The notes beneath the pieces are model-generated. The model ran no database searches. It was not told the DNA's origin and was given only the letters and a program-made list of their open reading frames with translations. The position numbers and the translations under genes were made by a program. From Cenococcum geophilum (Eukaryota), in the NCBI GenBank assembly GCA_050273025.1, contig CP158635.1, positions 5,766,001 through 5,830,000 of the forward strand: a stretch of 64,000 bases of DNA, read 5' to 3'. This document shows positions 7,927 to 63,481 of the stretch, piece after piece (positions within the stretch are counted from its first letter, which is position 1; every line of letters starts with the position of its first letter).

Positions 7927-8034
7927 CCATCTCCCTCCTCTCTATCTTTGTCCTTAAAGATATCTCCTATCTCTAAGTTATTAATTAGAGGTATAGCATT
8001 CCTGTCTTTAATTTAATAACCTTTATTATTCCTA

Positions 8035-16090: not shown

Positions 16091-17145
16091 TAATACTCTT
16101 ATACCTTTTCTATAGCGTTCTTTAGATTTCCTAGTAGCTCCTAGGTAGTTTTATTGTAGCCTATCTACTTAACCTTATACTATATTTTATTGTCGATTTC
16201 CTTATAGTTAATAATCTTTAAAACTTGCTATTTGTCTTCTTCCTATCCTTTATACGTATCTGCTTTATAAACTAGTGGCTTAATATTCCTATATGCTAGC
16301 TTTAGTATTATAATATACTATATAGGGTAAATCTTTATCTTAGCTGGTAGGTTTAACTTAAATATAATCGGTAAAATCCTCTATTTAATTTTAAAAGGTC
16401 CTAGTCTAACATAGTCTAACTTCTTGCTTAGTTATTAACTTTTAAAATTTTTATATAGTAGCTATACTTTATCTCCCTCCTTAAGATCTAGTTCCTTAGA
16501 TCTTTTAGTATTATAGTACTTCTTTATTCTTTTTTATACCTTTTTTGCTAATTCTATAAGGTCTATATAAAGATTTATTAGTATCTTTATCCTTTCTTTA
16601 GCTGTGCTACTTGTTTTCTTTGCTTACTATAGTAATAATAATATTCTTAGTTTATATCTATAGTTTGCCTTAAATAGTAATATGCCTATTTCTTCTTGTG
16701 GTATTACATTATATATAAACTATATAATTAGTAACAGTAATACCTAATTATTCTACGTATAATTAATATAATGTTTTTATTAGTATAACTTTTACAACGT
16801 GCAGAATATATATATCACAATAATATGTACTATACGGTATTATAAATAGATTATTCTCTAAGATCTACGCGTCGCGAGAGGTAAGGCTTGTCACGTGTTC
16901 TCCTATAACCTCTGTCAACCAATTACGATTTTTCATACCCGGTATAGAAAATCACCATTAGCTTACTTACCACTAGCGCCTTAGCCGCCCTTACAATATG
17001 TCTAACACTTCTAGCTACACTAGGAATACTTTAGAAAACGTAAAAATCTAGTATCCTATAACTGTGCAATTTAAAAATCCATATACGCATTTCTCCTTCC
17101 TTCCTTCCTTACTATTACAGCATAGGTTATAATAGTACTAAGTAG

Positions 17146-27400: not shown

Positions 27401-29990
27401 TTATAGTAATAACCCCTTTAAGCATACCAAATACATTTAAAAGGTCCTATAGCGCCTTAGGGACGTAGGACTTTATATTAATTCAAAGAAATATGAATTC
27501 TTAGTTATAGAAGTAAAATACCTTAGACTAATTATTACCACTAAGGGTGTCTATATAGACCCCAAGAAGGTACGCATAATTACTAAATAGCAAGCCCCTA
27601 ACTGTATTAAGGACGTATAAGCCTTCCTTAGTTTCGCTAACTTTATTAGAAATTTATATACAACTTCTTAGGCGTAATAGCACTACTTATAGTAATAATG
27701 CGAACGAAGGGCCTTTCTGTAAAAGGAAGAAAAACGCACTTATACTTTACCTAAACGCCTAAATACGAGAAGGCGTTTTAAGACCTTAAAAATGCCTTTA
27801 CTAAAGCACCTATCCTAGCTCACTTTATACTAGGATGATAACTCTACCTTAAAACCGACTCCTTAGACTACGTTAACGCAGGCATCCTCTCCTAGATGGG
27901 TAATAACGGTCTCCTTTACCTAGTTATATTCTACTTATCTAAGCTTATACTATAAGAGTATAACTACAAGATCTATAATAAAGAACTCCTTATAATTATA
28001 TAAGCGTTTAAAGAATTCTAACCAGAACTCTCCTTAGTAAAGCCTAACTAGCTAACTAAAGTCCTTACGGACCATTGTAACCTTAAGTACTTTATAACTA
28101 TAAAGTAGCTAAACTAACGCTAAGCACGTTAGAACGAGTTCCTCTCTAGTTTTAACTTTAAAATCGTATATAAACTAGGAGTATAAGGTACTAAACCTAA
28201 TAGCCTAATACGCCGCTCGTAAGACCTTCCTTAGTCTAATAATAACCCCTATAATTAGTTCCAACAACAAACAATCCTAAAAGCACGAAATTTGGCCCTA
28301 AGTATACTACCTATAATAGAGCCAACTATACCCTAGCTTTATACTACAGAACTAGAGTTACTTCCCAAAATTAATAAGCTTATTACTACGGCATATGACG
28401 TCTCTGTCGACCCATTACTATATTAACTTATTGCTATAAAGACCGCCGGCGCCTATATACTGCCTACTAACCTCTAAAGCTTAGGCTAGATTAATATGGC
28501 AGCCTTAGAAGTAAAAGAGAATAGGCTCTATTATAGACGCCGCCTATTTATCCCTAACTTAGAAAATCTATAACGGCAACTAATCTAAATGGCCTATAAC
28601 CTTTGATTAAGCGGCCACCTAGGCAAAGGAGGAACCTATAAGCTTCTTAGCCAATACTACTTCTGGCCAAAAATAATAGACTTAGTTAAACGCTTTATAG
28701 GCGCCTGCTACGGTTATAAGCGCGTTAAGGCCTTTAATATAAAGTACTAAGGACTACTGCACCCTCTACTAGTACCTATACGACGATAGGCAGATATCGC
28801 TATAGATTTCGTTATTAACCTACTACCCTATAAACGATACGGCCGTACCTATAAGAATATCCTTATAATAATATGCCGACTTATAAAAGAGCGCTACTAC
28901 GTCCTAACCGAAGGCGTAGCCGTTAGCGACGTTACTGACGCCTTCCTTCGCGAAGTCTACTGACTATATGGGTTACCTAACTCGATTACATCCGACCAGG
29001 GTATATAATTTAACTCCAATATATAAAGACGAATCTACTAACGCCTTAATATCTCCGTTAAGATATCTATATCCTTTTACTATAAAACTACTGGGTAACT
29101 AGAAAACGCTAATGCCAGTATAAAAGCGTACCTACGACAGGTAGTTGCCTATAGTTAAGATAACTAGGTAGATTACCTTCTACTAGGTAAATTTATAGCG
29201 AATAACTACGTCTTAACTACTATAGGATTTACTCCGTTCTTTATAAACAAGGGTTATTACCCCTAATCCGGCATAGAGCCACTAAAACCTATTAATAAGA
29301 AACTGCCATATGGAAAACGCCTTAAGATACTACTTACTAACTAGTATACAGACCGTATAAAAAATCTACTCGACTACTATAAGGGAGAAATGGCCTGGGC
29401 TTAAGTAAAGTAGGCCTACTTTACCAACCGTTATAGAACGCCACTACTAGAGATACGTGTTAGCGACTAGATATAGCTAGATATACGTAATATCTCTACG
29501 CAGAGACCTATAAAGTCACTCGATTATAAGAACCTTGGCCCCTATTTAATTAAACGAGTTATTAATAGGGGAGTCGTATATAAGCTAGAACTTCTACCTA
29601 TTCTAACTACCTGTAGAATATAACCTATATTTTACCTATAGCTACTACACCTCTATTAGCCTAACCCCCTATTAGGGCAAATATAGCCTAAACCCCTATT
29701 AGTATTAATCTAAGATAAGAATAAAGATAAGAACTATAAGAAGTGGACCGTTAAACGAATTATTAACTCGGAATACTTTAGCAAAGGCAGAGGACAACGG
29801 CTCTACTATAGAGCTATATATATAGGATTTAATATAGATTAGCTAGAATAGCAATTATAAAAAGATTTTAAAAATGCAAAGGATTTAATTAGCGACTTTT
29901 ACTATACAAACCTATAGAAACTGGGCCTAAGCAGAAATTTTATACCTAATCCTCTATAGGAGCTCTTATAGAGTTAAACTGTTATATATT
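24449..29990 (+). pseudogene. Family E gag-pol (gag, protease, RT, RNase H, integrase, chromodomain)
   Basis: The ORF-track entry 26922-27173 (KGFICPS..AAPILL..KK...IQFYINYRGLNAII.KNRY) is the RT N-terminus. TACCTAGACGATATA = YLDDI at 27381. GHPG at ~28612. Chromodomain-like EWTVERIVDS at ~29740. Confidence 0.9.
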
Positions 29991-38872: not shown

Positions 38873-40128
38873 ATTATTATATAATATATTAAAGAGATTT
38901 TAAGATATTCCTTAATAATATTAATAACTTTAAGAACCCATTTAATTATTGCTTGTTAACCTTTAAGAAATAAAGTTATACTCTTAAAGATAGAGAGAAA
39001 TTACTCTATTATACGACAGAGAGTAATATTAGAGGGAGTAAGCTTATCTCTTTTATTAATCGTACTCTTATTAATATGCGCTTTAGTATAATTCCGAAGT
39101 ATATTAAGGACTTCCTTCTTAAGTATAATATAAAGTATACGGAACTAGCTATTTTATCTTATATAATTACCTAGGGGGATTAACTTTCTAGAGAGTGTAT
39201 TAAACTTATTTATATAATTAGGCGAGGCACGGATATAGACAACAAGATTATAGATCTTGCCTATAACACCTATCTTTACTCTAATTAAATTTGCTCTCTC
39301 TTTTTAGTATTTATTATTTAACTCTTCTCCTAATTTATCTTCTCTATATACAATTCTATAAGTTACTCTTCGCTATTATTAATAAAGAGAAAAGCTTTAA
39401 TAATAAGATTAAGAATATAGCCTATATAGCAGAGCCGTTAGAAAGTCTAATTCTAGTTAATTTAATTCTTTATACTAAGATAAGTTGCCATTATATAATA
39501 AAGCGTATTATTTATGGTAGAATTGTTATTAATAAGGATGCTAATATTTTCTATAATTCTATAATCTTTAAGGATGGGGTAAAGGGCTTCCCTTTAATTT
39601 AAACTACTATAGCTATATACCGTATAAAGGGTAATTAAGATATTTTAAAAGCGATCCTATGTTACGGACGCTTTAAGTACAATGTTATGACTACTTGGAG
39701 AAGAGTCGGAAGAAGCTAGTTGGTTAATTTAAGCACGGTTTAGGATGGAGCCGATAGAACTATGTGACGAGGAATGGTAACTAAGGTCACGTAATATAAT
39801 CTGTATAATCTGTAGGATTTATATAATCCGTAACAGAGTAGGTAGAGTATATATATATTATGTATAAGAAGGATTTTATAGGATTACGGTTGTGTATTTA
39901 AGGACCCTTAGTCCCTACCTAGATAGTTCCTTTCTTATAGTAATTCTTAGAATACAATTAGAGTTAATCTATTGGGCAACTACTCCACTAGTTATTATTA
40001 CGTTATTAACTTTAACTTGCATTACCTATATACCTAGCCCAATAATAAGCCTACCGTAGTACCTACTACAAGGTTCCGTTATATAATTACTACCTAGTTA
40101 CAGTATTAAGTATAGAAAGTTGAATAAT

Positions 40129-43100
40129 ATGCTACTAAATGCAGCCACTATAACGCCATTGACGGCGGCAACTACCTTAAGGTTAGGAGGCGATACCAGT
40201 ATAGCAGATACTGACTCGCAATAACCTATGACGGTTGGATAACTATAAGAGATAGTTAACTAATTAACGACTAATAATGCGGCGCTGGAAGAAAGGGTTA
40301 ATAGGATAAGAGTAGCAAAGATTAAGTTACCATTAATTAAGAGATACTTAGGCGAGAGATTAAAGCTTAAAGGATTTCTTATATAAATGCACTTTAAAGT
40401 TATATAAGAAGGGGTAAAGCTACTAACACCTATAGATCGAATAGCCTATGCGAGACTATTTCTGTTAGGAAGGGCACTTAAGTGGTTTAAGCTTTACCTT
40501 ACGGAAATATAGGTAAATGGAATGACAACCACTAATTAGGAGGTGCGGTTTATATTCTTAAGCTAAGAAGGGTTTATAGAGCAACTTACGCAGATATTTA
40601 GAGACCTAGAGGCAATAACTATAGCGGAAAGAAAGCTCTAAGACATTACGTAACGAACTTTAGTAATTAAATATATAATATAGTTCCAGATATTAGCTAT
40701 ATAAGTTAAGTGGAATAATGAGGCGCTTATAGCATAATATAAATAAGGACTTAAGGCTAAAGTCTAGGATGTAATTATCCTAATAAAAGATGCGGACACC
40801 CTATAGGAATTAATAGATTAAGCGATTAAGATTAACAATTAGATCTACTAAAGGGAATAGGCTAAAAGAGGCTAAAATAGAGTTCTATAGTTATATAAGG
40901 CGTAAAGTACGCAACAACTAAAGCTAAGTTAGAGACTATAGTATAGCGCAGAGCTAATAGACCTAAGTAGTACTAAAGAAGCCTATAAGAGATGGAGTAA
41001 GAAACCATAAAAACCTAAAGGTTAAGGATCTAGTAATTATAGGACTAGGGAGCAGAGGCTAAACTAGGGATCTTAGCAGTAGAAAATATTTAGGCGAACT
41101 CTATAATAAAATTAGTGGTTTAAAGATAGAGCTTATATAAATTATAGAAAATAAGGTTACTTTATAAGGGATTATAAAGATAGTTAGAAGTACTATATAA
41201 TAAAAGGAACTAGACTAACGGTAGATAATATATACGTATAGAGGGATAATAGTGTACTATAGGGAACAAAAGAATATTTAATTAGAAGTTTTGAGTTTTG
41301 TTATAATAACACATACTAAATTTATAAAGACGCTAAGTATGGTATAAGCTATTGGCTATAAGAGCTAAAATCCTTTGAGTGTAGAGGAACTAATAAACTA
41401 GTTCGCAGATCGGATATTAAGGATAATAAATTTAATATAGGCGAAACATTTTGTAATAATAAGGCGATATAGGCGGTTTACTAGGAATACGTAGCTATCG
41501 GAGATGTTATACTAGAGGTAGAGGATAATTCCACTATAGAATAAGGAACATTAGTAGGGATTAAGACCCTACTAGACACGATATCTATCGCTTCGCGAGA
41601 CTTAAGAGAAGTAGGATAGCGAGCTACTTTAGCACTCAATAAAGGCAAAAGGCTAAAGGCTTAAAATTCTTAAGACGAAATAAAAGACAACTAAGATTCT
41701 TAAGACGAGATAAGGTAAGCTTAAGGACTTATAACAGACGATAACTAATAGAGTAGAGTAATAGCTTAGTTTAAAGATATATAAATAAGCTTAAGATAAG
41801 ATAAGTAAGATTTAAGACTTTTAAGATAAGATAAGAATACCCAAGCCTAGTTAGACTAAGGTAGGAGTTAAGCTTAAGTTAGGAGTAAGCTTAAGATTAA
41901 AGAATTTAAGGGACTAAAGATTTAGAGTATAAATAAGGGCACCCACAAGTAAGAGGCAAGAGGCTTCTTTATAGATTAGAGAATCTATAGTGCAAATAGT
42001 AGTTAGGCTAGGAGACAGATATATAGACCTAAAAGACCTACTAGGTAAATAAAGCATTTAGCTTAAAGATCAAAAAGTTAATACTAAAATTAAGAAGTAA
42101 GATAACTTTAAGGATCTACTTATAAGATACAAAAAGAAAGAAACCATAGAGGAATTTAGAGCAAGAATTACCTTATAGTAGGATTAGAAACTAGATAAGA
42201 GATTTAGCGTACTAGGTTATATAAGGGACAGAGCACCTATATAAAGAATTACTAATAGACCTAGAATAGGTATACTAAGAGCTAAGTGGCTTACTAAATT
42301 AGAAGATAAAGAGGATCTAGAAATCCTAATTAGGTTTAAAGAACAATATATAAAGGGCTATTATAACGTAGTAATAAGAAGATACTTTCTTATAAACAAG
42401 CTGTATACACTCCAGCAGCTATATTAAAGGTAGTATAGGCAACGACATAATAATAAGTAGGAAGATTTCTATATATAATTGGACAAAAAAGTTATCTAAG
42501 ACCACCTAATTACGGAAAAGGCTATAAGTTATATTAAAGAAGCCTTAATTATAATATTAAAGGATCTAGAGGAGTAATTAGAGGACTAGAGAAGTAAGAG
42601 GCAAATTATAGTACCTGTAAATGAAGCTGCAACGCTTAAATCAACATAGAAAGGTTTAAACTTAAGGGTAAAAACGAGCTAAGAGTTAACCTAAAACACT
42701 AAGTATACTATATATTAGCATAGATTATATACGTAGATAATACGTATAATATATATAGAGCACTAAAGAATAGAAACTGGAAGTACCTAGTAAGGATATA
42801 CTAGTTATTAAACAAGGCAAAATATTAAAATATTAAGTATATGCATAGTTAGCACCTAGTAGAAGTATAAGCCTAAGGGGACTTAATACTTTAACTAGGA
42901 AGATTCCTTACGGAAGAATACCTAGATAGATAATAGTAGTGGGAATACCTAGAGAATATATATTTATAGTATATTAAAAATAAAAAGCAAACTAAGTATT
43001 AGCTAAAAGTGGACTAAGTATAAACAGGATTAAGCAGCTAATAGTTAGGAAAAGTAGAGGCCTATAGAACTAAAGGGAACTAGTAGTAGAGCCTTAAACC

Positions 43101-46100
43101 CTTAAAGGAATTTAAGGATAATACCTAAATCTATAAGTTAAATAGTAAGATTAGTAGTTTAAAGCACTAATAGATAGTAGAGTAATAAGGAACTATATCT
43201 TACTAATAGCAGTTAAAATAATAGGGTTACTACACAGGAAAAAGGAGCACCCTTACCTACTAGTAATAATTTTAGGAGATCTAATAGCCTATAAAGGAGG
43301 TATTATTAATCTCAAAACAGGACCTATTTAGTTAACTATTAAAGGAAGATAAATTAAGATATCTTTTAATATATTACCATTAGGGAATAATAAGGCAGTA
43401 CTAGAAATGCCTTAGTTACAGGAATATAATCTAAGGATTAATTAGATTATAGGTTAGGTTAATATTAGAGATACTTAACGCCATAAGATATAATAATAAA
43501 CTAAGTTAGTATAGTACTAAGTCGGAGTAATATACGAAGAAACTAAGTGAGGCTTAAGTTATATACTAAAAAGATACCACAAGTATAGTAAAAAACTATA
43601 GTCACTAGAAAGTAAAAAGCTATTAGAATATATAGTATAGGACTATAAAATAGAATTAGAACTAGAAATAAGTCTAAGGTTCTTTCTAATCTATAAGCTT
43701 ACTAAAGAAGAAAGGAGAGTATTAAAAGAGTTTATTTAGGAAAACCTATAAAAGGGATATATTAGACTATTGTAGTTATTAGCAGGTTATCTAGTACTAT
43801 TTATACTAAAGAAAAATAGTAAACTAAGGCTGTATATCGACTATAGACAGTTAAATAGTATTACTAGAAAGGACAGGTATCCTTTACCCTTAATTAGCAA
43901 AATTTAAGATAGGATAGGTAACGTACAAATCTTTATAAAGATAGATCTAAGATAGGCGTACTATTAGATTAGAATTAAGGAAGGTAATAAATAAAAGGCA
44001 GCCTTTAGGTTAAAAGAAGGACTATATAAACTATTAGTTATATAATTTAGGCTTATAAACGTATTAGCAATATTCTAAAAGCGTATTAATAATATATTAG
44101 GAGAGCACTTAGATGAATTTGTTATAGTATACCTTAATAATATTATTATCTACTTAATAACTAAGGAAGAATACGGGGAATACGTTAAATAGGTTTTAAA
44201 GAGACTATAAGAGGAATAGATACTAGTAGCAATTAAGAAATACGAGTTCTTTACTAGGAAAACCATTTTATTAAATTTATTATTAAACTAGGCTAACTTA
44301 GTATAGATCTAAAAAAGATTAAGGCTATAGTAAATTAGTAAGAACTAGAGAATATTATATAGTTAAGATTATTTCTAGGGTTTTATAATTACTATAGAAG
44401 GTTTATAGCGCAGTAGTTAAAGGATATTAAACTATTTACGCGATTAATAAAGAAGAAAGAACTATAGGCATAGGGAGAAGAACAGCGAAAATTATTTAAA
44501 GAAGTTAAAAGGTTGTTTACCTAAGAGCTAGTTCTTAAAATCTATTAACTAGGGCTAAAAACGGTTATAGAAACGGATATATTAGACTTTATACTAGGGG
44601 TATACTTTATATAGAAATATTAAGATAGATGGCACCTAGTGGCATACTATAGTAAGAAAATAATACTACTAGAGTTAAACTATAACATTTATAATAAGGA
44701 GTTATTAGGTATAGTTATAGTACTTAAAAAATAGAGAGTATTCTTATAAGGCATAGAGAAACTATTTATAGTTAAGACGGATTATAAGAACCTAATAGGA
44801 TTTCTAATAATAAAGGAACTTAATTAAAAATAGGTTAGATAGGTAGAGATACTTATAGAATACTATTTTAAAATTTAGTATATTAAGGGTACAGATAATA
44901 TATAAGTAGATACTCTAAGTTAAAAAGCTAAACTATAAAATAATAAAAAGCCATTAGGGGCTTTACTGCGAAAAGATATAGACGGATTAATTAGGTATAA
45001 TTATCTAAAAATTATAGTAACTTAAGAGGAACTAAATAAGGTTTATAAGTTATTAGAAAGCTTTTAGGTATAAAGAATTCTAAAGGTATAACTAGAAGAT
45101 CTATAGACGGATATATATAAAAATTAGGAAGTAAAGTATATCCTAAAAAGCATAGCAAAGTAGTTCGTAGAGGACTTCTATAAGGGACTAACTTAAGGAC
45201 ATAACGGAGCTATAGGCTTAGTGTTAAGACTTTAGGAAGAATATATTATTAATAAAATCTAAAATATTATAAGAAAAGTAATAAAGGAATATCTAGATTG
45301 CTAAAGAAATAAATTAATAAGGCATAAGCTATATAGAGGGCTATAACCTAATAAAATATTAGAGAGACTATAGGAGGTTATATTATAGGACTTTATTATT
45401 AAGTTACTAAAATTAAGAGATCCTATTACTGGATAAGATTATAACGAAATCTTAGTAATTATAGACAAGCTTATAAAGTAGGGATACTTTATAGCATACA
45501 CAAAAGAAATATTAGTAGAAGATATCGCTAGAATCTATATTAAAGAAGTGTTTATAAGGTATAGAGCACTAAGTAAAATTATATTAGATAAAGATTTAAG
45601 ATTTATAGTAGTATTTTAGAAGGTATTCTTAGCGGAATAAGGAGTTAAAGCAGTAACTTTTACCGTATATTATCCGCAGACGGACGGTTAAACGGAGAGA
45701 TTAAATTAGACACTAGAATAGTATTTAAGACATTATATTAATTATATACAGAATAATTAGGTATTGCTATTACTAGTTATATAGTTTATATATAATATAG
45801 CACCTTAAGAAGGAATAGGCATATTACCATTTAAGGCAAATTACGGATATAAACTAAGAATATTATTATTATTATAGTAAGTAAAAAAGACGAGTAGCAT
45901 AGCTAAAGAAAGAATAAAGATATTAATAAATCTTTATATAGACCTTATAAAATTAGTAAAAAAAGTATAAGAAAGAATAAAAAGGTACTATAATACTAAG
46001 AGATCTAAGGGACTAGATCTTAAGGAGGGAGATAAAGTGTAGCTACTATACAAAAATTTTAAGAGTTAATAACTAAGTAAGAAGTTGGACTATATTAGAC

Positions 46101-46450
46101 TAGGACCTTTTAAAATTATATAGAGGATTTTACCGGTTACGTTTAAGTTAAACCTACTAGCTAAAATAAAGATTTACCCTATATAGTATATTATAATGCT
46201 AGAGCTAGTATATAGGAATATTAAGCTATTAGTTTATAAAGCAGACATATATAGAGGATAAGAAGAAGATAAATAGTAAGTTTTAAAGATTATTAGTTAT
46301 AAGGATATTAACGATAAAATATAGTATAAGGTTAAGTGGATAGGCTATACTAAGACTACTTAGGAACTACTAAAGAATCTAAAGAACGCTATAGGAAAGG
46401 TATAGGAGTATTAGAAGAAATTAGGTTAGGCAGTATTAATAAAAAAGGAT
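40129..46450 (+). pseudogene. Family B gag-pol: gag with CCHC, ~2-kb spacer, protease, RT, RNase H, integrase, chromodomain
   Basis: ATG at 40129. Reverted CYNCGKQGHF (~41133), ALIDSG (~43164), YLDDIIIY (~44130), WDFIVKL (~45386), QTDGQTER (~45677) and YKVKWTGY..TTWEP..NL (~46325). Confidence 0.9.
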
Positions 46451-47060
46451 TAAAAAAAATAAGTTACCTAAGGGGGACCTAAGAAGAGTAGTTGCTAAAC
46501 TACTTAAATCTATTTCCTTCTCGGCTAGATAAGAATCCGTTCTTTTATTACTAAGTTTCTATAGACCCTATTTTATAAGTTTTTACTCCTTAGAATAGAC
46601 CTTCTTATAAACCTTCTTAAGACGGATTAACTAAGCGGACGCTGTAAGATAAGACTTAAGGGCCCGTTGCTAAGTATTAGTAGCCTCCTATTCTGCGTTA
46701 TAAGAATAGTATAACTTCGCCAGGGTAATAAACAGCTTATTATCTAGCTATATAATAGTAGATTAAATATAAAACCCTAAGACAAATTAATTAAGAAACT
46801 AGACAACTATTAAGAGCAATAGGTTGTGTATATTTAGTATTAGAGATAGAGCAAACGTTATAGGACGAATAAATATTTGCTTTAGTGCGCTCTAAATAAG
46901 AGGATGGTTATCGCGAAGATAGACTCGCTAACGCAATATAAACTAACCCCTCTTTTAAATAGCAAGAATATAGAGACGGTATAATCTCACTAAGAGATAA
47001 TATCGCAGCGATAATGCGAGCATAATGAGCGGTTAAAGAAAAAGAAATTACTTTAGGTAT
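46430..47060 (-). pseudogene. Antisense accessory gene (Zn2Cys6-like plus coiled coil) in the full-length + strand family-B copy
   Basis: Reverse-complement homologue of 15464-16090. The start codon is mutated to ATA at 47060. Confidence 0.68.
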
Positions 47061-48011
47061 AATAAGTAATAATATTAACCAAATTAATTAGATAGATATT
47101 ACACCTCTAGTAAACAACTTAGAGATATTTTAAATCTTTAAGGACGAAGATAAAGAGAAGGGAGATAGTGTTACGGACGCTTTAAGTATAATATTATAAC
47201 TACTTAGAGAAGAGTTAAAAGAAGCTAATTAGTTAATTTAAGCACGGTTTAAGATAGAGCCAATAGAACTATGTAACGAGGAATAGTAACTAAGATTATA
47301 TAATATAATCTATATAATCTATAGGATCTATATAATCCGTAATAGAGTAGGCAGAGTATACGTATATTATATATAAGAAGGATTTTATAGGAGTACGGTT
47401 GTGTATTTAAGGACCCTTAGTCCCTACCTAGATAGTTCCTTCCTTATAGTAATTCTTAGAATATAATTAGAGTTAATCTATTAGGCAACCACTCTACTAG
47501 TTATTATTACGTTATTAACTTTAACTTGCATTACCTACACACCTAGCCTAATAATGAGCCTACTGTAGTACTTGCTATAAGGTTCCGTTACATCCTAGGT
47601 ATTAATAAAGCTGGCGCAAATTATAAGTAAAAGGTTATAACTTAGTAAGGTCTAGATATCGACAGTAAAATAGATGCTTATTTGCGATAATTAAAGCCTT
47701 TTTTATATAATATCTTTTGCTTATGGAAACTAAGCCCCTACCCTCTATTTAGTCATGTTATAAGATACTAGTATAAATATACGGCCTTGTGGATTTATTG
47801 CTTAAATAAAGGCATACTATTCTGGCTATTCTATACCCAAAAATAGAAGCTATTATACAATAATTAGATCCAGGAGGGTTTAGTTAACGACCTGTTAATT
47901 AACTATACGCTAAAGAATCTCTTAATTAAGGTCGTCTTTACTATTACTAAGCTGGAGAAGAAGCTATTGTATTACAGCACTAGTGGAAACTAGTAAATTG
48001 TGGCTAATAGA

Positions 48012-51000: not shown

Positions 51001-53807
51001 CCTATTACGGAATATATAAATATAAGGTACTCCATTTAAACTAACTAATAGACTAGCTATATACTAGCGGTATATAAATAATATACTCTTTAACTACCTT
51101 AACGACTTCTATACGGCCTATTTAGATAATATTATAATCTACTCTAAGAACGAGCTAGAATATAAGGAGCACGTCTATAAAGTCCTATAATGGCTCCGCG
51201 AGGCTAGCCTTTAGGTTAATATTAAGAAGTTAGAGTTTAGTGTTAAGCGTATAAAGTACCTAGGTTTTATTATTAGTATAAACAGAATTAAAACTAATCT
51301 AAAAAAGACGGCTGTAATTAACTAGTGGGCACCCCCACGAACCGTAAAGGGGGTATAATTATTTTTAGGTTTTTGTAACTTCTACTAACGCTTTATTAAA
51401 AACTATAGTAGGATTGCCTAGCCTCTTAACTATTTTACTAGAAAAGACTAGCTTTTTTACTTTAACGCTATATATAGGTAGGCCTTTAATAAGCTTAAGA
51501 AACGGCTAGTATCGGCTCCTCTATTTGCCTATTTTGACCTAAAACGGCCCTTAGTACTAGAAACTGATGCCTTAAATAGCGTAATAGCTGGTGTTTTTTC
51601 CTAGAAGTAACTAGATAGAGAGTAGCACCCTATTATATACTATTTAAAGACTATAATAGATATTAAGCTAAACTACTACATCTATAATAAAGAAATGCTG
51701 GCTATTATCTCTAGTTTTTAGCACTAGCGTATACAGCTAAAGGGGACCCCTAAGCTAATTAAGGTAGTTTTAGATTATAAGGCCCTAGAATACTTTATAA
51801 TAATTAAGGCCCTTACGGCCTAGTAGGCACGCTAGGCGGATACCCTATCTTAGTTTAACTTTTTAATTATATATAGACTAGGCGCTATAAACCGTGCGGA
51901 CGCTCTTATAAGGCGTAAGTAAGACCTAGATAACTAAACGGCTGTGAAGATCTTATTATAGACCTAGACGCTATTATAACTAGAATACCTTAACCCCTAA
52001 ATATGGGAAGAACTAAGTACAGACTTCTTAGGCGCTAAGATATATCCTATTAACTCCTCTAAACTTAACCTTATTAATAAACTACTATAGGCTAACTAAA
52101 TAACCCCCTCTCTATAGGAGTACTGTAAAAAGGTAAAGAATATTACTAGCCTATAGTCCCTTAAAAATAGACTACTTAAGCACTAGAAATGGCTAGTAGT
52201 AGCTAAGGAATAGAACTTACGGACCCGGCTTATTGCCGAAGCTTATACCTAGGTCTCTACGGCCTACTCTAGAAAAAATAAAACCTGTAAGATTATTAGT
52301 AACCGCTACTACTAGCCCGGAATAGTTATAGATATTAACCGCTATATACGGAACTGTAACGACTGCTATAGATCTATAATTCTATAAGATAAAACCCTAG
52401 GACTATTAAAATCACTCTTAATACCAGAACGCCCCTAATAGTATATCTTTATAGACTTTTATAAACTACCTATAGACCGTAACGGATATAATATAGTTAT
52501 AATCCTAGTTAACTGCTTTAGTAAGCGCCTGTTCTTAATCCCCTATTATAAGAATATTAATACTAAAGAGGCGGCCTAACTATATATCTACTACGTCTAC
52601 CAAATTTACGGACTACTAGATACTATTATATCCAATTATAGGCCGTAATTTATTTTAGCTTTCTGGAATAAGTTTATCTAAATCTTAAGCATTAAGCTAA
52701 AACTTTTTATAGCATACTACCCCCAAATAGATAGTTAGACGGAAATTATAAATTAATACTTAGGCTAGAGACTTTAGCCCTTTATTAACTACTTCTAAGA
52801 TAACTAGGCTAAACTACTACCCCTAATAAACTACGCCTAAGCGACTCTACCTTACGACTTTATAGGATTTGCCCCTATCTAGCTAGAAATAGTGTAAGCT
52901 TTGCAGTATATGGGAATTGAACGAGCAACTTAATTCTAAATCTATGGAAATCAAGTGGTATAAATATATAAAAGTAGACCGATTTGGTGAGCGAGTTAAG
53001 GGCTAGGCAACTGAAACAAGGTGGTACGCTAGTGAGACAAGGTAGTGTTTTAGCAGGGTACCGTAGTCGGTTACAAATAGGCTACTTACTCCATATAAGC
53101 TTTGACTGGGAAAGACTAAAAGGACCCTAGACTATACGCAAAAAACTATTTTATAAGGAAGCCTAGTAGTACGCCAAGCGCTTAGAAGAAGCCTAAACGG
53201 TAGCCTATATAAATCTAAAAAAGGCCTAGAAATTAATATAATAGTAGGTAAATAAGTATAGGCAAGAGCCTAACTTTACTATAGGAGATATGGTCTAGGT
53301 TATAACAAAAAACTAAAAGATAAAACAACCTAGCCGTAAGCTAGACTATTAGATAGTAGGACCATATAAAGTTCTTAAGAAGATAGGTAACGCGTATAAA
53401 GTAAAGCTCTCAGATTTAATTAAAGTTTACCTTATTTTTTCTTTAGATAAACTATAGAAAGTTATAAATGACCTATTACCTAAATAAAAGAATAAACCTC
53501 CCCTGCCGATTTAAGTTAATAGCGATAATAAATAGGAAATTAAAGAAATACTAGCCTATAAGCTTATAAGGGGAACGTTAAAATATTATATTAGTTAGAA
53601 AGGGTATAACCTAGACCCTACTTAGTATCCTATATAGAACTTTATAGGTAGTCCCTATAAGCTTTAGGAATTTTATAGTTATTACCCTAATAAACCTAGA
53701 CCCCTAAAGTACCTTAATAAGTAGATAGAGTGCTAGAATAGCGAAGATAATAAGCTACCTATTAAGCATAAAGATAAGAATACCTTATGGATATAATACG
53801 GACGTAT
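48012..53807 (+). mobile_element. Gypsy family C element: 5' LTR 48012-48245, gag-pol with chromodomain; 3' LTR not in window
   Basis: LTR TATTGGTG...GTCGCTAACA. Gag KVADPPLLTDGTDPTFDNW (~48718), YLDDIMIY (~51119), QMDGQTE (~52723) and chromodomain WEIEEILA..DPTWYP (~53533-53630). Confidence 0.88.
52893..53075. mobile_element. Solo LTR (183 bp) inserted in family C integrase
   Basis: TGTAAGC...GGTTACA termini with 5-bp TSD AATAG (52888-52892, 53076-53080). The host frame continues across it. Confidence 0.9.
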
Positions 53808-54731
53808 CCCTTAACACGGCAGGGTCCTTAAAGGAACTGGTCTGTGCGCGAACACCAGAATCAAAATAACGCGTATATCTATATAGAATTCAATTATTAA
53901 TTATACTACTACTATTCTAATCGTTCTAAAATTGATATAGACCTTGTTCAGCCTACTTAATATAACGTTCGGCCTAATTAGAGTGCGAAAAACCCCTATC
54001 TTAAGCCCTAGCCGTTGCCCAAATTTAAACCGCTCTATATTGACAATTAGGACGACTATAGCTTACTAAACCTACCCCCTAATGTTAATACACACGATCC
54101 TTTTAAGTTATTTAGTCTCTTCATTATAGATAAGATTATGGATAGGCTTACAGAATAGACGAATAAGCACGTAGAGCTTTACCCGCTAAATAAGGAATTG
54201 GAACACCTACGCGTATAGCAGCCTATATATAAGTAGGAACTTTACGCATACTTTATAGTGCAGATTTATATAGGTATTACTATAGAATTATGCATTAAGG
54301 ATTACTGGAAGGATTTAATAATATATAGCTCTAAGTATATTGTTAAAAAAATATATAGGACTTAAGAGATTCTAGTAGCTTAATTATTACTTTTAAGCCT
54401 TACCACTATAGTTAAAGTCTAACAAAATACCTAAAACTATATTTAATAAAGTTAATAAGCTTATTAAGTACCTCTAGCTTACTTATAGGAAGCTCTATAC
54501 CCCTAGAACCTACCTTGCCGTTAATAAAACAATTTAGTACTTTATGGGTCGTGCTCCTAAAATAGTTAATATTCTATCTAAACCAACACCAGAAGGCTTT
54601 AAAATATGGATTTTGGCTAATAAGGGCTATATATTAGACTTTATATAGCACACTAAAGGTAATAAGAAAGGTCCAGGTAATTTAGATAAGTCTTTTTTAG
54701 AGGAAGGCTTTTTAAAGACATAGGTAGTAGT

Positions 54732-57700
54732 TATAACGGAACCTTATAGCAAGTACTACAATAGGCTCGTTGTTGGGCTAGGTGTGTAGGTGATACAAAT
54801 TAAAGTTAACAACGTAATAATAACTGGTGGAGTAGTTGCCTAATAGATTAACTCTAATTATATTCTAAGAATCACTATAAGGAAGGAACTATCTAGGTAG
54901 GGACTAAGGGTCCTTAAATACACAACCGTACTCCTATAAAATCCTTTTTATACGTAATATACGTCTTATATATAAGGTATATAAGTTCCTTCTATTTCTC
55001 TTATTTAATATATAGCATGTTATATAACCTTAGCTACTATTCCTCGTTATATAAATCTACTAGTTCTATCCTAAACTATATTTAAATTAACTAATTAGCT
55101 TCTTTTAACTCTTCTCTAAGTAGTTATAATATTATACTTAAAGCGTCTATAACACCATCTCCCTTCTTTTTATCTTCGTTCTTAAAGATTCCTAATATCT
55201 CTAAGTTGTTTACTAGAGGTATAATATTTATTTAATTAATTTAGTTAATATTATTGCTTATTATACCTAAAGTAATTTCTTCTTTATACGCCCAACGTCG
55301 TGCTCGCACTATTGCTGTAATATTATCTCTTAGTAAGATTATACTGTTTCCGTATTCTCGCTATTTAAAAGAGGGGTTAGTTTGTATTACATTGGCGAAC
55401 CTATCTTTATAACAACTATCCTTTTACTTAGAGTATACTAAAGTAAATATTCGTTTGTCCTGCGATGTTTACTTTACCTTTAATGCTAAATATACGCGAC
55501 CTATTACTCTTAATAGTCGTCTAGTTCCCTAATTAATTTGTCTTAGGGTCTTATATTTAATCTATTACTACGCGGCTAGATAGTAAACTATTTTAAGCCC
55601 TTACTAAGTTAGAATGTTCTTATAATACGGAATAGAAGGCCCTAAATACTTACATTGCGGCGTCTACTTAATTACTTTATCTTAAAAAGGTTTATAAGAA
55701 GGTTCGTTTTAAGGAGTAGAAACTTATAAAATAGGGTCTTTAGGAACTTAGTAATAAAAGAACGGATTCTCTTCTTACTAAGAAGAAAATAGATCTAAGT
55801 AGTTCAGTAACTGCTCTTCTTAGGTCCCCCTTAGGTAACTTAATTTTTAGCAATTCTTCTTTATTAATGCTTTCTAACCTAATTTCTTCTAATACTCCTA
55901 TACCTTTTTTATAGCGTTTTTTAGGTTCTTTAGTGGCTCCTAGGTAGTCTTATTATAGCCTGTCCACTTTACCTTATACTATATTTTATTATTAATATCC
56001 TTATAACTAATAACCTTTAAAACTTGCTATTTGTCTTCTTTTTATCCTCTATATATGTCTGCTTTATAGACCAATAGCTTAATATTCCTATATACTAACT
56101 CTAGCATTACAATATACTATATAGGGTAGATCTTTATTTTGGCTAGTAGGTTTAACTTATATATAACCGGTAAAATCCTTTATTTAATTTTAAAAGGTCC
56201 TAGTCTAATATAGTTTAACTTCTTACTTAGTCATTAACTTTTAAAATTTTTGTGTAGTAGCCATACTTTATCTCCCTCCTTAAGATCTGGTCCCTTAAAT
56301 CTCTTAATATTATAGTACCTTTTTATTGTCTCTTATACTTTCTTTACTAATTCTATAAGGTCTATATAAAGATTTATTAACGTCTTTATTCTTTCTTTAG
56401 CTATACTACTTATTTTCTTCGCTTATTATAATAATAATAATATTTTTAGCTCGTATCCATAATTCGCCTTAAATAGTAATATGCCTATTCCTTCTTAAGG
56501 TGTTGCATTATATATAAACTATATAACTAGTAATAATAATACCCAATTATTCTATACGTGATTAATATAGTATCTTAGATACTACTCTAGTGTCTAATTT
56601 AATCTTTCCGTTTGGCCATCTGTCTACAGATAATATACGGTAAAAGTTACTACTTTAACTCCTTATTCTACTAAGAATACCTCCTAAAATACTGCTATAA
56701 ATCTTAGATCTCTATCTAATATAATCTTACTTAATACTCTATATCTTACGAATACTTCCTTAATATAGATTCTAGCGATATTTTCTGCTAATATTTCTTC
56801 TATACACGCTATAAAGTATCCCTACTTTGTAAGCTTATCTACTATTACTAAGATTACGTTATAATTTTATCTAGTAATAGGATCTCTTAATTTTAGCAAC
56901 TTAATAATAAAGTCCCATAATATAACCTCCTATAGTCTCTTTAGTATTTTAATAGGTTGTAGCCCTCTATATAGCTTATACCTTATTAGTTTATTCCTCT
57001 AGCAATCTAAATATTCTTTTATAACCTTTCGCGCTAAGCCCTAGATTCTATTAATAATATACTCCTCCTAGAGTTTTAATACTAAGCCTATAGCTCCATT
57101 ATATCCTTAAGTTAATCCTTTATAGAATTCTTCTATAAATTGCTCTACTATACTTCTTAGGATGTACTTTGCTTCTTAATTTTTATATATATCTGTCTAT
57201 AGATCTTCTAGTTATGCTTTTAGAATTCTTTATACCTAAAAGCTTTCTAGTAACTTATAAACCCTATTTAGTTTCTCTTTAGTTTCTCTTAAGTTACTAT
57301 AATCTTTAAATAATTATACCTAATTAGTCTATCTATATCTTTTTATAGTAAAGCCCCTAATAGCTTTTTATCGCTTTGTAGTTTAGCCTTTTAACTTAGA
57401 GTATCTACTCGCGTATTATCTGTACCCTTAGTATACTAAATCTTAAAATAGTATTCTATAAGCATCTCCGCCTATCTAACCTATCTTTAGTTAAGTTCCT
57501 TTATTATTAGGAATCCTATTAGGTTCTTATAATCTATTTTAACTATAAATAGTTTCTTTATACCTTATAAAAATACTCTTTATTTTTTTAGTGCTGTAAC
57601 TATACCTAATAACTCCTTATTATAAATGTTATAGTTTAACTATAGTATACCACTGGGTGCTATCTATTTTAATATTTCTATATAAAGTACGCCCCTAATA

Positions 57701-60700
57701 TAAAGTCTAATACATCTATTTCTATAACCGTCTCTAGTCCTAGTTAATAGATCTTAAGAACTAGCTCCTGGGTAAACAACCTTTTAACCTCTTTAAATAA
57801 TTTCTACTATTCCTCTCTCTATGCCTATAGTTTTTCCTTCTTCGTTAATTACGTAAATAGTTTAATATTCTTTAACTATTACGCTGTAAACCTTTTATAG
57901 TAATTGCAAAACCCTAAAAACAATCTTAACTATATAATGTTCTCTAGTTCTTACCAATTTACTATAGCCTTAATCTTCTTTAGATCTATACTAAGTTAGC
58001 CTAGTTTAATAATAAATCTAATAAAATTGGTCTTCCTAGTAAAAAACTCGTATTTCTTAATTGCTATTAGCATCTATTCTTTCTATAGTCTCTTTAAGAC
58101 CCATTTAACGTATTCTTTATACTCCTCTTTAGTTATTAAGTAGATAATAATGTTGTTAAGGTATACTATAACAAATTTATCTAAGTATTCTCCTAATACG
58201 TTGTTAATACGCTTCTAGAACGTTGCTAGTATATTTATAAGCCTAAATTATATAACTAATAGCTTATATAGTCTTTCCTTTAACCTAAAGACTGCCTTCT
58301 ATTTATCGAGTTCCTTAATTCTAATCTAATGGTACGCCTATCTTAGATCTATTTTCGTAAAGATTTATATATTACCTATCCTATCTTAGATTTCGCTAAT
58401 TAAGGGTAAAAGATACCTATCCTTCCTAGTAATACTATTTAACTGTCTATAGTTAATATATAGCCTTAGTTTACTATTCTTCTTTAGTATAAATAGTACT
58501 AAATACCCCACTAATAACTATAATGGTCTAATATATCCTTTTTATAGATTTTCCTAGATAAATTCTTTTAATACTCTACCTTCTTCTTTAGTAAGCTTAT
58601 AGATTAGAAAGAACCTTAGACTTATTCCTAGTTCTAATTCTATTTTATAGTCCCATGCTATATACTCTAACAGCTTTTTACTTTCTAGTAACTATAGTTT
58701 TCTACCATACTTATAGTATTTCTTTAGTATATGGCCTAATCCTTTTTCTATTTCTTCGTAGGTCGCTCCTACTTAATACTATATTAACTTAGCTTACTAT
58801 TATATCTTACGGCGTTAAGTATCTCTAATATTAACCTAACCTATAACCTAATCGATTTTTAGATTATATTCCTATAACTAAGGCATTCTTAGTACTGCCT
58901 TATTATTTCCTAATAGTAATATATTAAAAGACATCTTAATTTATCTTCCTTTAATAGTTAACTAAATAGGTTTTGTTTTAAGATTAATAATACCTCCTTT
59001 ATAGGCTATCGAATCTCCTAAAATTGTTACTAATAAGTAAAGGTACTCTTTTTTCCTATATAGTAATCCCATTCTTTTAACTGCTATTAGCGAGATATAG
59101 TTCCTTATTACTCCACTATCTATTAATACCTTAAACTGTTAATCTTACTATTTAACTCGTAAATTCAGGTATCGTCCTTAAATTCCCTTAAGGGTTTAAG
59201 GCTTTACTACTAGTTCCCTCTAGTCCTATAGGCCTCTACTTTTTCTAACTATTAGCTACTTAATCCTATTTATACTTAATCTATCTTTAACTAATACTTA
59301 ATTCGCTTTTTGTCTTTAATATACCATAGATATATATTCTCTAAGCATTCCCACTACTATTATCCATTTAGGCATTTTTCCGTAAGGAATCTTCCTAGTT
59401 AAAGTATTAAGTCCCCTTAGCTTTACACTTCTACTAGGTGCCAACTATATATATACTTAACATTTCTATATTTTACCTCGTCTAATAACTAGTATATCCT
59501 TACTAGGTACTTCCGGTTCTTATCTTTAGGTACTCTATATATATTATATATATTATCTACGCACGTAATTTATGCTATTATATAATATGCTTAGTGTTTT
59601 AAGTTAACTCTTAGTTTATTTTCTTCCTTAAGTTTAAACCTCTCTTATATTAATCTAAGCGTTATAACTTTATTTACAGGTACTATAATTTACCTCTTAC
59701 TTCTCTAGTCCTCTAATTACTCCTTTAGATCTTTTAACGTTATAATTAAGGCTCCTTTAATATAACTTATAGCCTTTTCCGTAATTAGGTAGTCTTAGAT
59801 AACTTTCTTATCTAACTATATATAGAAATCTTCCTACTTATTATTATGCCTCTACCTATATTACCTTTAGTATAGCTGCCGGAGTATATACAGTTTATTT
59901 ATAAAGAAGTATCTTCTTATTACTACATTATAATATCTCTTTATATATCGTTCTTTAAACCTAATTAGGATCCCTAGATCCTCTTCTTATTCTAATTTAG
60001 TAAGCTACTTAGCTCTTAATGTGCCTACTTTAGGCCTATTAGTAATCCTTTATATAGGTGCTCTGTCCCTTATACGTCCTAATATACTAAATCTCTTATC
60101 TAGTTTCTAATCTTACTATAAAGTAATTCTTGCTCTAAATTCCTCTATGGTTTTTTTCTTTTTATATCTCGTAAGTAGATCCTTAAAGTCATTTTACTTC
60201 TTAATCTTAGTATTAACTTTTTAATCTTTAGGCCGAACACTATATTCTCCTAGTAAGTCTTCTAGGTCTATATATCTGTCTCCTAGTCTAATTACTATTT
60301 ATACTATAGATTCTCTAATCTATAAAGAAGCCTCTTGCCTCTTACTTATAGGTGTTCTTATTTATACTTTAAATTCTTAGTCCCTTAGATTCTTTAATCC
60401 TAAGCTTGCTTCTAACTTAAGCTTAGCTCCTACCTTAGTTTAACTAAACTTAGGTATTTTTATTTTATCTTAAGAGTCTTAAATCTTACTTATTTCGTCT
60501 TAAGAGTCTTATACCTATGGGAAACTCTATCCCGAGCTTATTTGTATATTTTTAAACTAAGCCATTGCTCTGCTCTATCGGTTATCGTCTATTATAGGTC
60601 CTTAAGCTTACCTTATCTCGTCTTAAGAATCTTAGTTATCTCTTATCTTATCTTAAGAATCTTAAGCCTTTAGTCTTTTGCCTTTATTAAGTACTAAAGT

Positions 60701-62662
60701 AGTTTACTATTCTACTTTTCTTATATCTTGTAAAGCAATAGACATCGTGTCTAGTAGGGTCTTAATCCCTACTAATATTCCCTATTCTGTAGTGGAATTA
60801 TCCTCTACCTCTAGTATAATATCTCTAAGGTCTGCATACTCCTAGTAAGCTACTCTTATTACCTTATTATTATAAAATATTTCGCCTATATTAAATTTAT
60901 TATCCTTAATATCCAATCTATAAACTAGTTCGTTAATTCCCTTATATTTTAAGGATTTTAGCTCCTATAGCCAATAGCTTACGCCATACTTAGCGTCTTT
61001 ATAAATTCGGTATGCGTTGTTATAACAAAATATAAAACTTCTAATTAAATACTCTTTTGTTCCTTATAGTATACTATTATCCCTCTATATATATATATCT
61101 TCTACTATTAGTCTAGTTTCCTTTATTATATAGTACTTCTAACTATCCTTATAATCCCTCACAAAGTAACCTTATTTTCTATAATTTATATAAGCTCCAT
61201 CCTTAAACCACTAACTTTGCTATAGAGTCCGCCTAAACATCTTCTACTACTAAGATTCCTAGTTTAGCCTCTGCTCCTTAGTCCTATAATTACTAGATTC
61301 TTAACCTCTAGGTTTCTATAGTTTCTTACTCTATCTCTTATAGGTTTCTTTAGTACTACTTAGGTCCATTAGTTCTACACTATACCATAATTTCTAACTT
61401 AGCTTTAGTTATTGCGTACTCTACGTCTTATATAACTATAGAACTCTATCCTAGCCTCTTTTAGCCTATTCCCTTTAGTAAATCCAATTATTAATCTTAA
61501 TCGCTTAATCTATTAACTCCCTTAGGGTATCCATATCTTCTATTAGGATAATCGCGTCCTAGACTTTAGCCTTAAGTCCTTATTTATACTATACCATAAG
61601 CGCCTTATTATTCCACTTAACTTATATAGCTAGCGTCTAGAACTACGTTATATACTCTATTACTAAGGTTTATTGCATAATATCTTAGAGTTTTCTTTCC
61701 GCCGTAGTAACTGCCTCTAGGTCTTTAAATATTTACGTAAGTCGCTCTATAAACCCCTCCTAGCTTAAGAATATAAATCACACCTCTTAATTAGTGGTCG
61801 TTATTTTATTTACCTATATTTCCATAAGATAAGGCTTAAACTACTTAAGTGCCCTTCCTAACAGGAATAGTCCTACGTAGGCTATTCGATCTATAGGTAT
61901 TAGTAGCTTCGCCCCTTCTTACGTAACTTTAAAGTGCATTTAGGTAAGAAACCCCTTAAGCTTTAATCTTTCTCCTAAGTACCTTTTAATTAATAGTAGC
62001 TTAATCTTTGCTGCTCTAATCCCATTAACCCTTTCTTCTAGCGCTACATTGTTTGTTATTAACTAGTTAACTATCTCTTATAGTTATTTAACCGTTATAG
62101 GTTGCTATAAGTCAGTATCTGCTATACTGGTGTCACCTAACCTTAAAGTAATTGCCGCCGTCAATAGCGTTATAGTGGCTGCTTTTAGTGGCATGTTGTT
62201 TAACTTTCTGTATTTAATACTATAACTAGGTAGTGATTATATAACGGAACCTTATAGCAAGTACTACGATAGGCTCGTTATTAGGCTAGGTGTATAGGTA
62301 ATGTAAATTAAAGTTAACAACGTAATAATAACTGGTGGAGTAGTTGCCTAATAGATTAACTCTAATTATATTCTAAGAATTACTACAAGAAAGGAACTAT
62401 CTAGGTAGGGACTAAGGGTCCTTAAATACACAACCGTACTCCTATAAAATCCTTCTTATACGTGATATACGTCTTATACATAAGGTACGTAAGTTCCTCC
62501 CATTCCTCTCGTTTAATACGTAGTATATTATGTGACCTTGGCTACTATTCCTCGTCATATAGATCTACCGGTTCCATCCTAGACCGTGCCTAAATTAACC
62601 AACTAGCTTCTTCTAACTCTTCTCCAAGTAGTCGTAATATTGTACTTAAAGCGTCCGTAACA
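54732..62662 (-). mobile_element. Full-length Gypsy/chromovirus family B element (7931 bp)
   Basis: 423-bp LTRs at 54732-55154 and 62240-62662, TSD GTAGT (54727-54731, 62663-62667). Gag ATG at 62194 on the minus strand. Collinear with 39660-47592. Confidence 0.96.
55263..55880 (+). pseudogene. Antisense accessory gene (Zn2Cys6-like plus coiled coil), intron ~55492-55546
   Basis: Homologous to 15464-16090. Cys3 (GTT TGT ATT) and Cys6 (TCC TGC GAT) codons survive. Confidence 0.7.
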
Positions 62663-63481
62663 GTAGTCCTTAATTTACTTCTCTAACTAGATACTAAAAT
62701 AGAAGAACGCCTCTACCTACCTAGAAAGCACGTTTTTTGGCTTAATAACCTATTTATAAGCGTTAAGCTTTTTATACGACTTTAAGACCTTAGTATTAGA
62801 GGCGTAGGAACCGTCTGAACAACTAAAATAAAGTGGGAAAAGTAGGGGGACCTTAAAGGCGATATTAAGGTGGCTATAACTATATAAGGAAAGAAGAAGG
62901 CACTTACCAAGCAAATTAGCTAGAGGCTTATAGAGCTTAAATTAACCTACGCCAGTTAAATTCTATATGGTGAACTCTATAGGGAGCTTTCTAAGGATAG
63001 CTAGGTAATAGAGTTTGCTTAAAAGGACGCTAATATTATCCTTTTTATAAGTACTATTAATAACGGTAAGTTTTATACCTTAACTATAAAGCTTAAAAGG
63101 TAATAACGTTATATATCGCTAGGTCGCTATATAATTGTTACTATATAGAAATGTCCTCTTCTTACTATTAGTGGTGCCAGATAGACTTGGAAGGTCTTTA
63201 GCAATAAAGGTAAGAAGGAATTACCTATTCCTACCTTTATTTTCTACTATAATTACTATATATGCAGTATAGATATTGCTAATTAACTACGCGCGTATTT
63301 TATAACGTAGAGGATTAACAAAAAGACCTAAAAGCCTCTATTCCACTTCCTACTTAATATAGTAATTAGTATTTACTATTTACTATCTTCTTACCCTTAT
63401 ACTAATCGCTGAGTAAGCTGTATAGAGGGCTATAAATAGTTTCGTATCGACCTCCGCAACGCCTTATTTAATATTATGGCA

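Follow-up and report, generated by a model that had tools for sequence, protein, structure and literature searches.

A probable spliced antisense gene facing the end of pol in degraded Ty3/Gypsy elements of Cenococcum geophilum

The window analysed here, a stretch of 64,000 nucleotides from the genome of Cenococcum geophilum (GenBank assembly GCA_050273025.1, contig CP158635.1, positions 5,766,001 to 5,830,000 of the forward strand), is AT-rich throughout (GC 0.25-0.38) and is composed of degraded repeats. These include copies of a Ty3/Gypsy retrotransposon, referred to as family B, that harbor the remains of a further reading frame near the 3' long terminal repeat (LTR), on the strand opposite to gag and pol. 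The four copies of this frame are interpreted as victims of repeat-induced point mutation (RIP), and the frame itself as a real antisense accessory gene of an ascomycete Ty3/Gypsy chromovirus lineage. The encoded protein has around 200 residues. Its N-terminus is basic and precedes a six-Cys module, which is followed by a helix of some 100 residues in which VREKVRSKE forms an invariant core, and its end carries the conserved sequence DTPxPF. That the gene is real and as described here is very probable, and a mechanism by which its product would regulate the element is put forward tentatively. Taken as a whole, gene and mechanism together, the account is one that we favor with moderate confidence.

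Relatives of the gene survive in an intact state. A search with the stop-read-through translation of the copy at 8035, with X in place of each stop, returned 109 cluster representatives at E<=1e-3 that span both halves of the antisense frame, most of which are the Tyr-rich products of RIPped copies themselves. A scan of metagenome contigs, in which 80 loci were kept from 85 confirmed relatives, gave four loci (L001, L002, L003 and L010) that are stop-free in both exons, with a single frameshift in exon 2 of L001. An earlier note on this DNA, made from its letters alone, had named intact homologues in the same position as something to be looked for, and these four loci provide them. Two database proteins are likewise intact: P0118 (152 residues), which has a complete 5' end, and P0120 (239 residues), which reaches the C-terminus. 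All six sequences contain the pattern C-x2-C-x6-C-x13-C-x2-C-x8-C. The earlier note had deduced the same pattern by reverting RIP changes in the window, and its peptide proves to be nearly letter-perfect, since the core of L003, CSRCSKEGLVCVALASPSSRQPSSCSECTKANVRSSC, is different at only two residues. Within the set of database proteins used for the junction and Cys counts (n=124), all six Cys are present in two, and the spacing is kept, with Cys or Tyr at each place, in 72. None of the matches from the homologue search was sourced from NCBI or UniProt, and no informative name was found among the 20 homologous proteins looked up.

In the window, a self-BLAST of 55101-56000 finds copies at 15302-16191 (83.7% identity) and 47222-46303 (81.7%), together with a more distant one at 7873-8795. 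The starts of the four antisense frames map exactly to the places given in the earlier note (55263+, 15464+, 47060- and 8035+); the end of the first, previously set at 55880, has to be moved, as the frame reaches 55914. The parts of the four copies are as follows.

55263 to 55491, plus strand: copy 1, exon 1 (aligned to L003 exon 1), with the basic N-terminus and six-Cys module; the start is now ATA and RIP stops are present
55492 to 55546, plus strand: copy 1, intron of 55 nt; donor GT mutated to AT, acceptor AG intact
55547 to 55914, plus strand: copy 1, exon 2, coding for the long helix, for the motif KVYKKVRxKE and, at the C-terminus, for NTPIPFL; stop TAG at 55912-55914
15464 to 16115, plus strand: copy 2, with exon 1 at 15464-15692, intron at 15693-15747 and exon 2 at 15748-16115; ATG kept, 8 stops
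46389 to 47060, minus strand: copy 3, with exon 1 at 47060-46832, intron at 46831-46777 and exon 2 at 46776-46389; ATA start, 8 stops and a late 1-nt frameshift
8035 to 8714, plus strand: copy 4, of subfamily b, with exon 1 at 8035-8256, intron at 8257-8310 and exon 2 at 8311-8714; 7 stops and several indels

The start codon is ATG in two of the four copies and ATA in those at 55263 and 47060. As had been noted before, a Cys codon survives in at least one window copy at Cys positions 1, 2, 3, 5 and 6, and position 4 is Tyr in all four. When the three subfamily-a copies are compared with intact L003, C>T and G>A changes make up 139-146 of the 194-210 differences, with 18-24 reverse transitions. 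Each of these copies carries 8 stops, nearly all at Q, W or R codons, and the exons of the copies at 15464 and 55263 contain no frameshifting indel. This spectrum of changes and placement of stops is that of RIP acting on a former gene. All four window copies are dead, because the start is mutated in two, the intron donor in all four, and 7-8 stops interrupt each one. The earlier note had recommended a de-RIPped consensus of all genomic copies; one built from the window copies keeps stops wherever all copies are mutated, and the intact relatives were used in its place.

In the intact loci, exon 1 ends in GA(G/A) T, the intron runs from GT(A/G)CG(C/T) to (C/T)AG, and exon 2 begins with GG TC. 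Since exon 1 ends in T and exon 2 starts with GG, splicing makes the Trp of the motif DAEW. The intron is 55 nt long in 81 of the 85 aligned copies. Of 83 copies, 79 have the acceptor AG; at the donor, 24 have GT and 58 have AT, including all four in the window; the change from GT to AT is the TpG-to-TpA change expected of RIP. Precise removal of the intron, giving DAEW followed directly by S(R/Q)V, is seen in six of the 124 database proteins. At the level of DNA, the junction is spanned by none of 134 tblastn high-scoring segment pairs (from the 80 genomic loci and the window), and no locus without the intron was found among them. Canonical sites that restore the frame, in combination with intron-less products, indicate that the antisense gene is spliced, as the earlier note had proposed from the window copies, where the intron after DAE-W falls at 55492-55546.

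The gene begins around 110 nt inside the edge of the 3' LTR, and its 3' end reaches roughly 20 nt into the coding sequence of the chromodomain. In 81 of 83 copies, the integrase-chromodomain block of the other strand terminates at most 150 nt from the antisense stop. The pol frame of the intact loci reads on past the chromodomain for some 290 codons; it crosses the whole antisense gene and enters the LTR by about 39 codons. As pol is open over all of this region, the antisense gene is nested within it, with no spacer. The location between pol and the 3' LTR given in the earlier note thus holds for slot and strand, but not for the interval of about 0.7 kb as a spacer.

The intron shifts the phase between the two strands, such that third positions fall together on the two strands in exon 1, whereas antisense position 3 is paired with sense position 2 in exon 2. 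Transversion diversity at antisense codon positions 1, 2 and 3, measured over 85 copies, is 0.061, 0.028 and 0.138 in exon 1 and 0.065, 0.063 and 0.139 in exon 2. Of the antisense third positions of exon 2, 72% vary between the four intact copies, against 39-43% of the other positions. The antisense-frame dN/dS between intact copies (Nei-Gojobori, 12 pairwise values) is 0.06-0.23 in exon 1 and 0.21-0.40 in exon 2, whereas the sense-frame dN/dS over exon 2 is 0.74-1.28. As dN/dS is low in the antisense frame and close to 1 in the sense frame over exon 2, the antisense protein is the constrained product. The pattern of substitution thus indicates a protein-coding gene under purifying selection, in agreement with the conservation that the earlier note had read from the four copies.

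What this protein might be is less clear from profiles and models. The Pfam gathering cut-offs are 21 bits for Zn_clus (PF00172) and 22 bits for DUF3716 (PF12511). Matches of L003 and L002 to DUF3716 cover profile positions 3-59 of 59, which is the whole six-Cys module. A canonical Zn(II)2Cys6 cluster has the spacing C-x2-C-x6-C-x5-12-C-x2-C-x6-8-C; all intervals of the present module fit except the 13-residue middle loop, which is one residue too long. An AlphaFold model of P0120, built with 47 aligned sequences, contains one helix (residues 98-200) in a block with pLDDT values of 85-99, and the Cys module scores 52-62; a model of L003 exon 1, with 75 sequences, has a mean pLDDT of 58.8. In the ESM Atlas, the top matches are unnamed Ascomycota clusters (0.86-0.88), and a cluster with DUF3716 on 28% of its members reaches a score of only 0.77. 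The module is probably a metal-binding six-Cys unit with a sub-threshold likeness to both DUF3716 and Zn_clus, and the present scores do not support membership of either family.

A number of results weigh against the account given here. The best Zn_clus score is 17.0 bits (E=0.0063, L002 exon 1), with the others at 8-15 bits, and the best DUF3716 score is 20.1 bits (E=6e-4, L003), followed by L002 at 18.6 and three others at 12-15. At E<=0.01, Zn_clus is found in one of 75 members and DUF3716 in two. A single-sequence search of the PDB gave PPR1 as its best match, at a non-significant E=0.56; the profile searches of the PDB gave no match with profile A4 and four helical chance matches with profile A5, with no zinc-cluster protein among them. 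Across the two AlphaFold models, the pLDDT of the Cys module is 41-62, and Foldseek with the full-length model returned no match at E<=0.001. Heptad periodicity is weak, the observed value being reached in 66 of 2000 shuffles with Ala counted as hydrophobic and in 284 of 2000 with Ala not so counted; of the coiled coil proposed in the earlier note, the long helix is modeled with confidence by AlphaFold. Part of the conservation of exon 1 could serve the other strand, the sense frame being open there. Because gene prediction for contigs of this sort takes no account of introns, the six spliced database proteins most likely derive from assembled transcripts, an RNA origin deduced on this ground. 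Finally, four RNA runs, out of 24 runs listed for this stretch, were compared with the window, one of raw reads and three sets of metatranscriptome contigs. The raw-read run gave 39 reads, all partial and mostly less than 95% alike, with none over 55393-55784 and essentially zero depth over 55281-55840.

The metatranscriptome contigs represent relatives in RNA libraries, with depth chiefly over the LTR, and a joint of 55491 to 55547, as the predicted donor would give, was not found in any of the four runs. As a separate observation, a contig from metatranscriptome run X15 connects 55218 with 55547, with GT..AG at the ends, using the acceptor of the intron and a donor upstream of the start codon; this joint is seen in one contig only, and its two sides may be separated by further letters. 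The four RNA runs are uninformative either way on the expression of intact copies.

The six-Cys module could be a divergent but true Gal4-type Zn(II)2Cys6 cluster, captured from a host transcription factor, in which case the protein would act as a sequence-specific, dimeric DNA-binding regulator. The earlier note had likewise seen a Gal4-type pattern and a DNA-binding regulator here. The spacing departs from the canonical form by one residue in one loop, the module resembles that of Gal4-type factors in its N-terminal place ahead of a long helix, four intact exon-1 translations give weak Zn_clus matches (13-17 bits, E=0.006-0.09), and PPR1 is the best, if non-significant, match in the PDB. However, every Zn_clus score falls below the cut-off, and the PPR1 alignment sets Cys 1-3 on the second triad of PPR1, such that only a C-x2-C-x6-C half-site is matched. 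DUF3716 also scores slightly better and over the whole module, few of the basic residues usual between Cys2 and Cys3 are present, the PDB profile searches found no zinc-cluster protein, and no confident fold was obtained. Membership of the Gal4-type family is therefore not sustained, and we regard this origin as unlikely.

Under the account that we favor, transcription of the antisense gene would start in or beside the 3' LTR. In P0120 and P0122, no stop closes the frame on its upstream side as it passes the antisense of the polypurine tract and the edge of the LTR, so that the 3' LTR may be where transcripts begin. The intron would be spliced from this transcript and would be retained through retrotransposition, as the genomic RNA has the opposite polarity and does not lose it. 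The Cys module is predicted to bind zinc, and the anatomy of the protein suggests a nuclear, oligomeric regulator of its own element that would bind nucleic acid or chromatin. HBZ of the human retrovirus HTLV-1 is likewise expressed in antisense from the side of the 3' LTR and spliced, harbors a basic region and a long dimerizing helix, and modulates the transcription of its own element. The present protein may work in a comparable mode, as an analogue and a lead only: HBZ is a bZIP protein without a Cys module, it belongs to an animal retrovirus, and the two are not homologous.

The function might also reside mainly in the antisense RNA, which could form dsRNA with the genomic RNA or interfere with transcription at the 3' end, the protein being secondary or acting on RNA or protein rather than DNA. 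Over its full length the transcript would be able to pair with 3' sequence of the pol mRNA, and a review on antisense reading frames of plant elements raises the same option (PMC7264820). A role in RNA only would not yield the wobble variation and the antisense dN/dS of 0.06-0.40, nor would it hold the six Cys invariant, and we rate this explanation as low as the Gal4-type one.

The open pol frame over the gene requires a closer look, and the relevant parts of the element at 54721-62665 are given here.

54721 to 55154, minus strand: 3' LTR of the element, 88.3% identical to 62227-62662, with the inner edge TGTTA at 55154
55155 to 55177, minus strand: candidate polypurine tract adjoining the 3' LTR on its upstream side, with the purine run gaagataaaaagaagggagatgg; the role is suggested by position
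55155 to 55891, minus strand: pol-tail frame facing the antisense gene, stop-rich here and open in intact relatives
55892 to 56971, minus strand: integrase core, SH3-like part and chromodomain of pol, matched in tblastn by the integrase-chromodomain of L003 at 61% identity across 360 aa

The last eight or so codons of the integrase-chromodomain block, which ends at 55892, overlap the 3' end of the antisense gene. Open pol frames extend over 3784-7512 in L002 and 29-4291 in L003, and L010 is alike; their tail portions are 3784-4718 and 29-905, respectively. The tail of L001 is open likewise, with the same single frameshift affecting both strands. The pol frame is the only one that is stop-free across the region in intact relatives, in which Pfam recognizes Chromo at E=2.5e-9 and nothing significant in the pol tail beyond it.

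That the sense pol tail alone is coding, and the antisense frame a by-product, would account for this openness in all intact relatives. Shuffling of synonymous codons in the antisense coding sequence (CDS) points the same way, as it creates a mean of 4.5-5.0 stops in the sense frame and leaves it without stops in 0.1-0.2% of shuffles; when shuffles were limited to those with TpA no higher than observed, the sense frame was open in 0.9% for L003 and in 0 of 15 for L002. All of these shuffle tests rest on four related intact copies, which are not independent. The converse shuffle, among synonymous codons of the sense frame, leaves the antisense CDS open in just 1.4-1.5% of trials. The sense dN/dS near 1 over exon 2, where the second codon position of the sense frame is the most variable, and the lack of a Pfam domain after Chromo also speak against a sense protein, and the antisense frame depends on a precisely placed and conserved 55-nt intron that is removed in six database proteins. 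A sense-only explanation is thus very improbable. Even so, the sense frame is open more often than expected, which we read as a pol tail that is kept translatable without constraint on its sequence.

Tyr is wholly absent from four intact family proteins (P0118, P0028, P0017 and P0115, of 138-154 residues). In exon 1, a Tyr codon that follows a pyrimidine-ending codon would create a stop in the pol frame, and the absence of Tyr may be part of a two-strand constraint.

A bolder and rather speculative extension, to which we give less credence than to the regulator mechanism itself, is that both strands of the region are maintained together as one coding unit. Selection on the pol tail would act on translatability alone, for example by sparing the genomic RNA a long 3' UTR and nonsense-mediated decay, and the antisense regulator would be a zinc-binding, helix-mediated oligomer on its own LTR, a fungal counterpart of retroviral HBZ. 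If true, a retrotransposon could carry an intron-containing regulator gene on its opposite strand.

That the antisense frame arose by chance, from the reading of Tyr as former Cys in AT-rich, RIPped DNA, where Tyr codons are common and the window copies stop-ridden, can be dismissed almost entirely, given that intact relatives have the six Cys, that the reconstructed peptide is nearly identical to theirs, that the spacing is preserved, as Cys or Tyr, in 72 of the 124 database proteins, and that dN/dS is low in the antisense frame.

Accessory genes in this position and orientation are known from other elements. One such element, Boty, is about 6 kb in length with LTRs of around 0.6 kb, and differs in this from the present element of about 7.9 kb with LTRs of around 435 bp. 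The original paper on brtn, the antisense gene of Boty-like elements, is said to be that of Zhao et al. in 2011 (Virology 417:248, PMID 21802103). Papers that cite it place brtn, a gene of unknown function, on the antisense strand in the interval from pol to the 3' LTR, in the Boty-like elements of Botrytis and Sclerotinia (PMC8365987, PMC4227169, PMC7264820). The present gene resembles it, by description only, as an extra gene that is antisense to gag-pol and is situated between the end of the pol chromodomain and the 3' LTR of an ascomycete chromovirus, with position and strand as in brtn in 81 of 83 copies. A gene of this type has been described in Botrytis before, and the layout is not new. 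The earlier note had left room for an undescribed gene; of the features seen here, it is the nesting inside an open pol tail for which no description was found in the literature searched. Nor was any paper found linking Zn2Cys6, LTR retrotransposons and antisense genes, and nothing relevant on antisense ORFs (open reading frames) in fungal chromodomain Gypsy elements was seen among the literature matches listed.

In plants, antisense reading frames (aORFs) occur between pol and the 3' LTR of Grande1, RIRE2, Retand and PvRetro13, and a review describes them as conserved within families, spliced in some cases, and suspected of a regulatory role that is unproven (PMC7264820). Slot, orientation, conservation within the family, splicing and a suspected role are thus shared with the present gene. 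The plant aORFs, however, belong to another kingdom and lie in long non-coding internal regions (PMC7264820), whereas the gene described here is inside an open pol frame; no sequence similarity to them was seen in any search made. DUF3716, a fungal Cys-rich domain of unknown function, occurs also in REP9-1 and REP9-2, accessory genes of an IS3EU DNA transposon in Zymoseptoria tritici (PMC8232023). The likeness extends over the whole six-Cys module and to a link with accessory genes of transposons in Ascomycota, but the scores are under the gathering cut-off (20.1 vs 22 bits). With Zn_clus proteins such as Gal4 and PPR1, the module shares six Cys arranged as two C-x2-C-x6/8-C triads at the N-terminus and a long helix thereafter, and differs in its 13-residue middle loop, its sub-threshold scores and its lack of structural support.

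The host element is, by its domain content, a Ty3/Gypsy chromovirus: with stops read through, Pfam finds Ty3_capsid, RVT_1, RT_RNaseH and SH3_Tf2-1 on the window element. Self-comparison of the window identifies two full-length family-B elements of about 7.9 kb each with LTRs of around 435 bp, at 39660-47593 (plus strand) and 54721-62665 (minus strand), as well as truncated copies. The segments 14928-16770 and 22824-24097 are collinear parts of one family-B copy, matching 54728-56569 and 56575-57816, and a nested insertion of around 6 kb therefore appears to separate them. A 2.9-kb repeat (12004-14931 and 24100-27028, 88.7% identity) directly follows truncated family-B copies that end at 12002 and 24097. 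A second and distant Gypsy integrase, 28-32% identical to that of family B, is found at 28751-29593 and 52400-53436 (plus strand), and by its sequence this is another retrotransposon family within the window. In the intact relatives, the gag frame is unusually long, with 953-964 residues (L003 4201-7062, minus strand; L002 614-3508, minus strand), and contains a single CCHC knuckle followed by several hundred further residues. The L002 and L003 contigs, of about 7.5 kb, end in direct overlaps of 126-127 nt and are cyclic assemblies that consist of the internal part and one collapsed LTR.

LTR retrotransposons of plants and of Botrytis are known to carry antisense accessory genes, none of which has a demonstrated function. 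The present family offers several handles on the problem: its protein is small, combines a six-Cys module with a long helix and is under purifying selection; its intron is conserved; intact and apparently expressed members occur in environmental fungi; and the gene is nested in an open pol tail. With these, the function of such genes becomes testable, in terms of zinc and DNA binding, dimerization, and an effect on LTR-driven expression. A separate question is raised as to the reason why the pol frame stays open over the gene. For annotation, the tail of these elements would be treated as coding on both strands, and RIP-degraded copies, such as those of Cenococcum geophilum, remain readable with the aid of their un-RIPped relatives.

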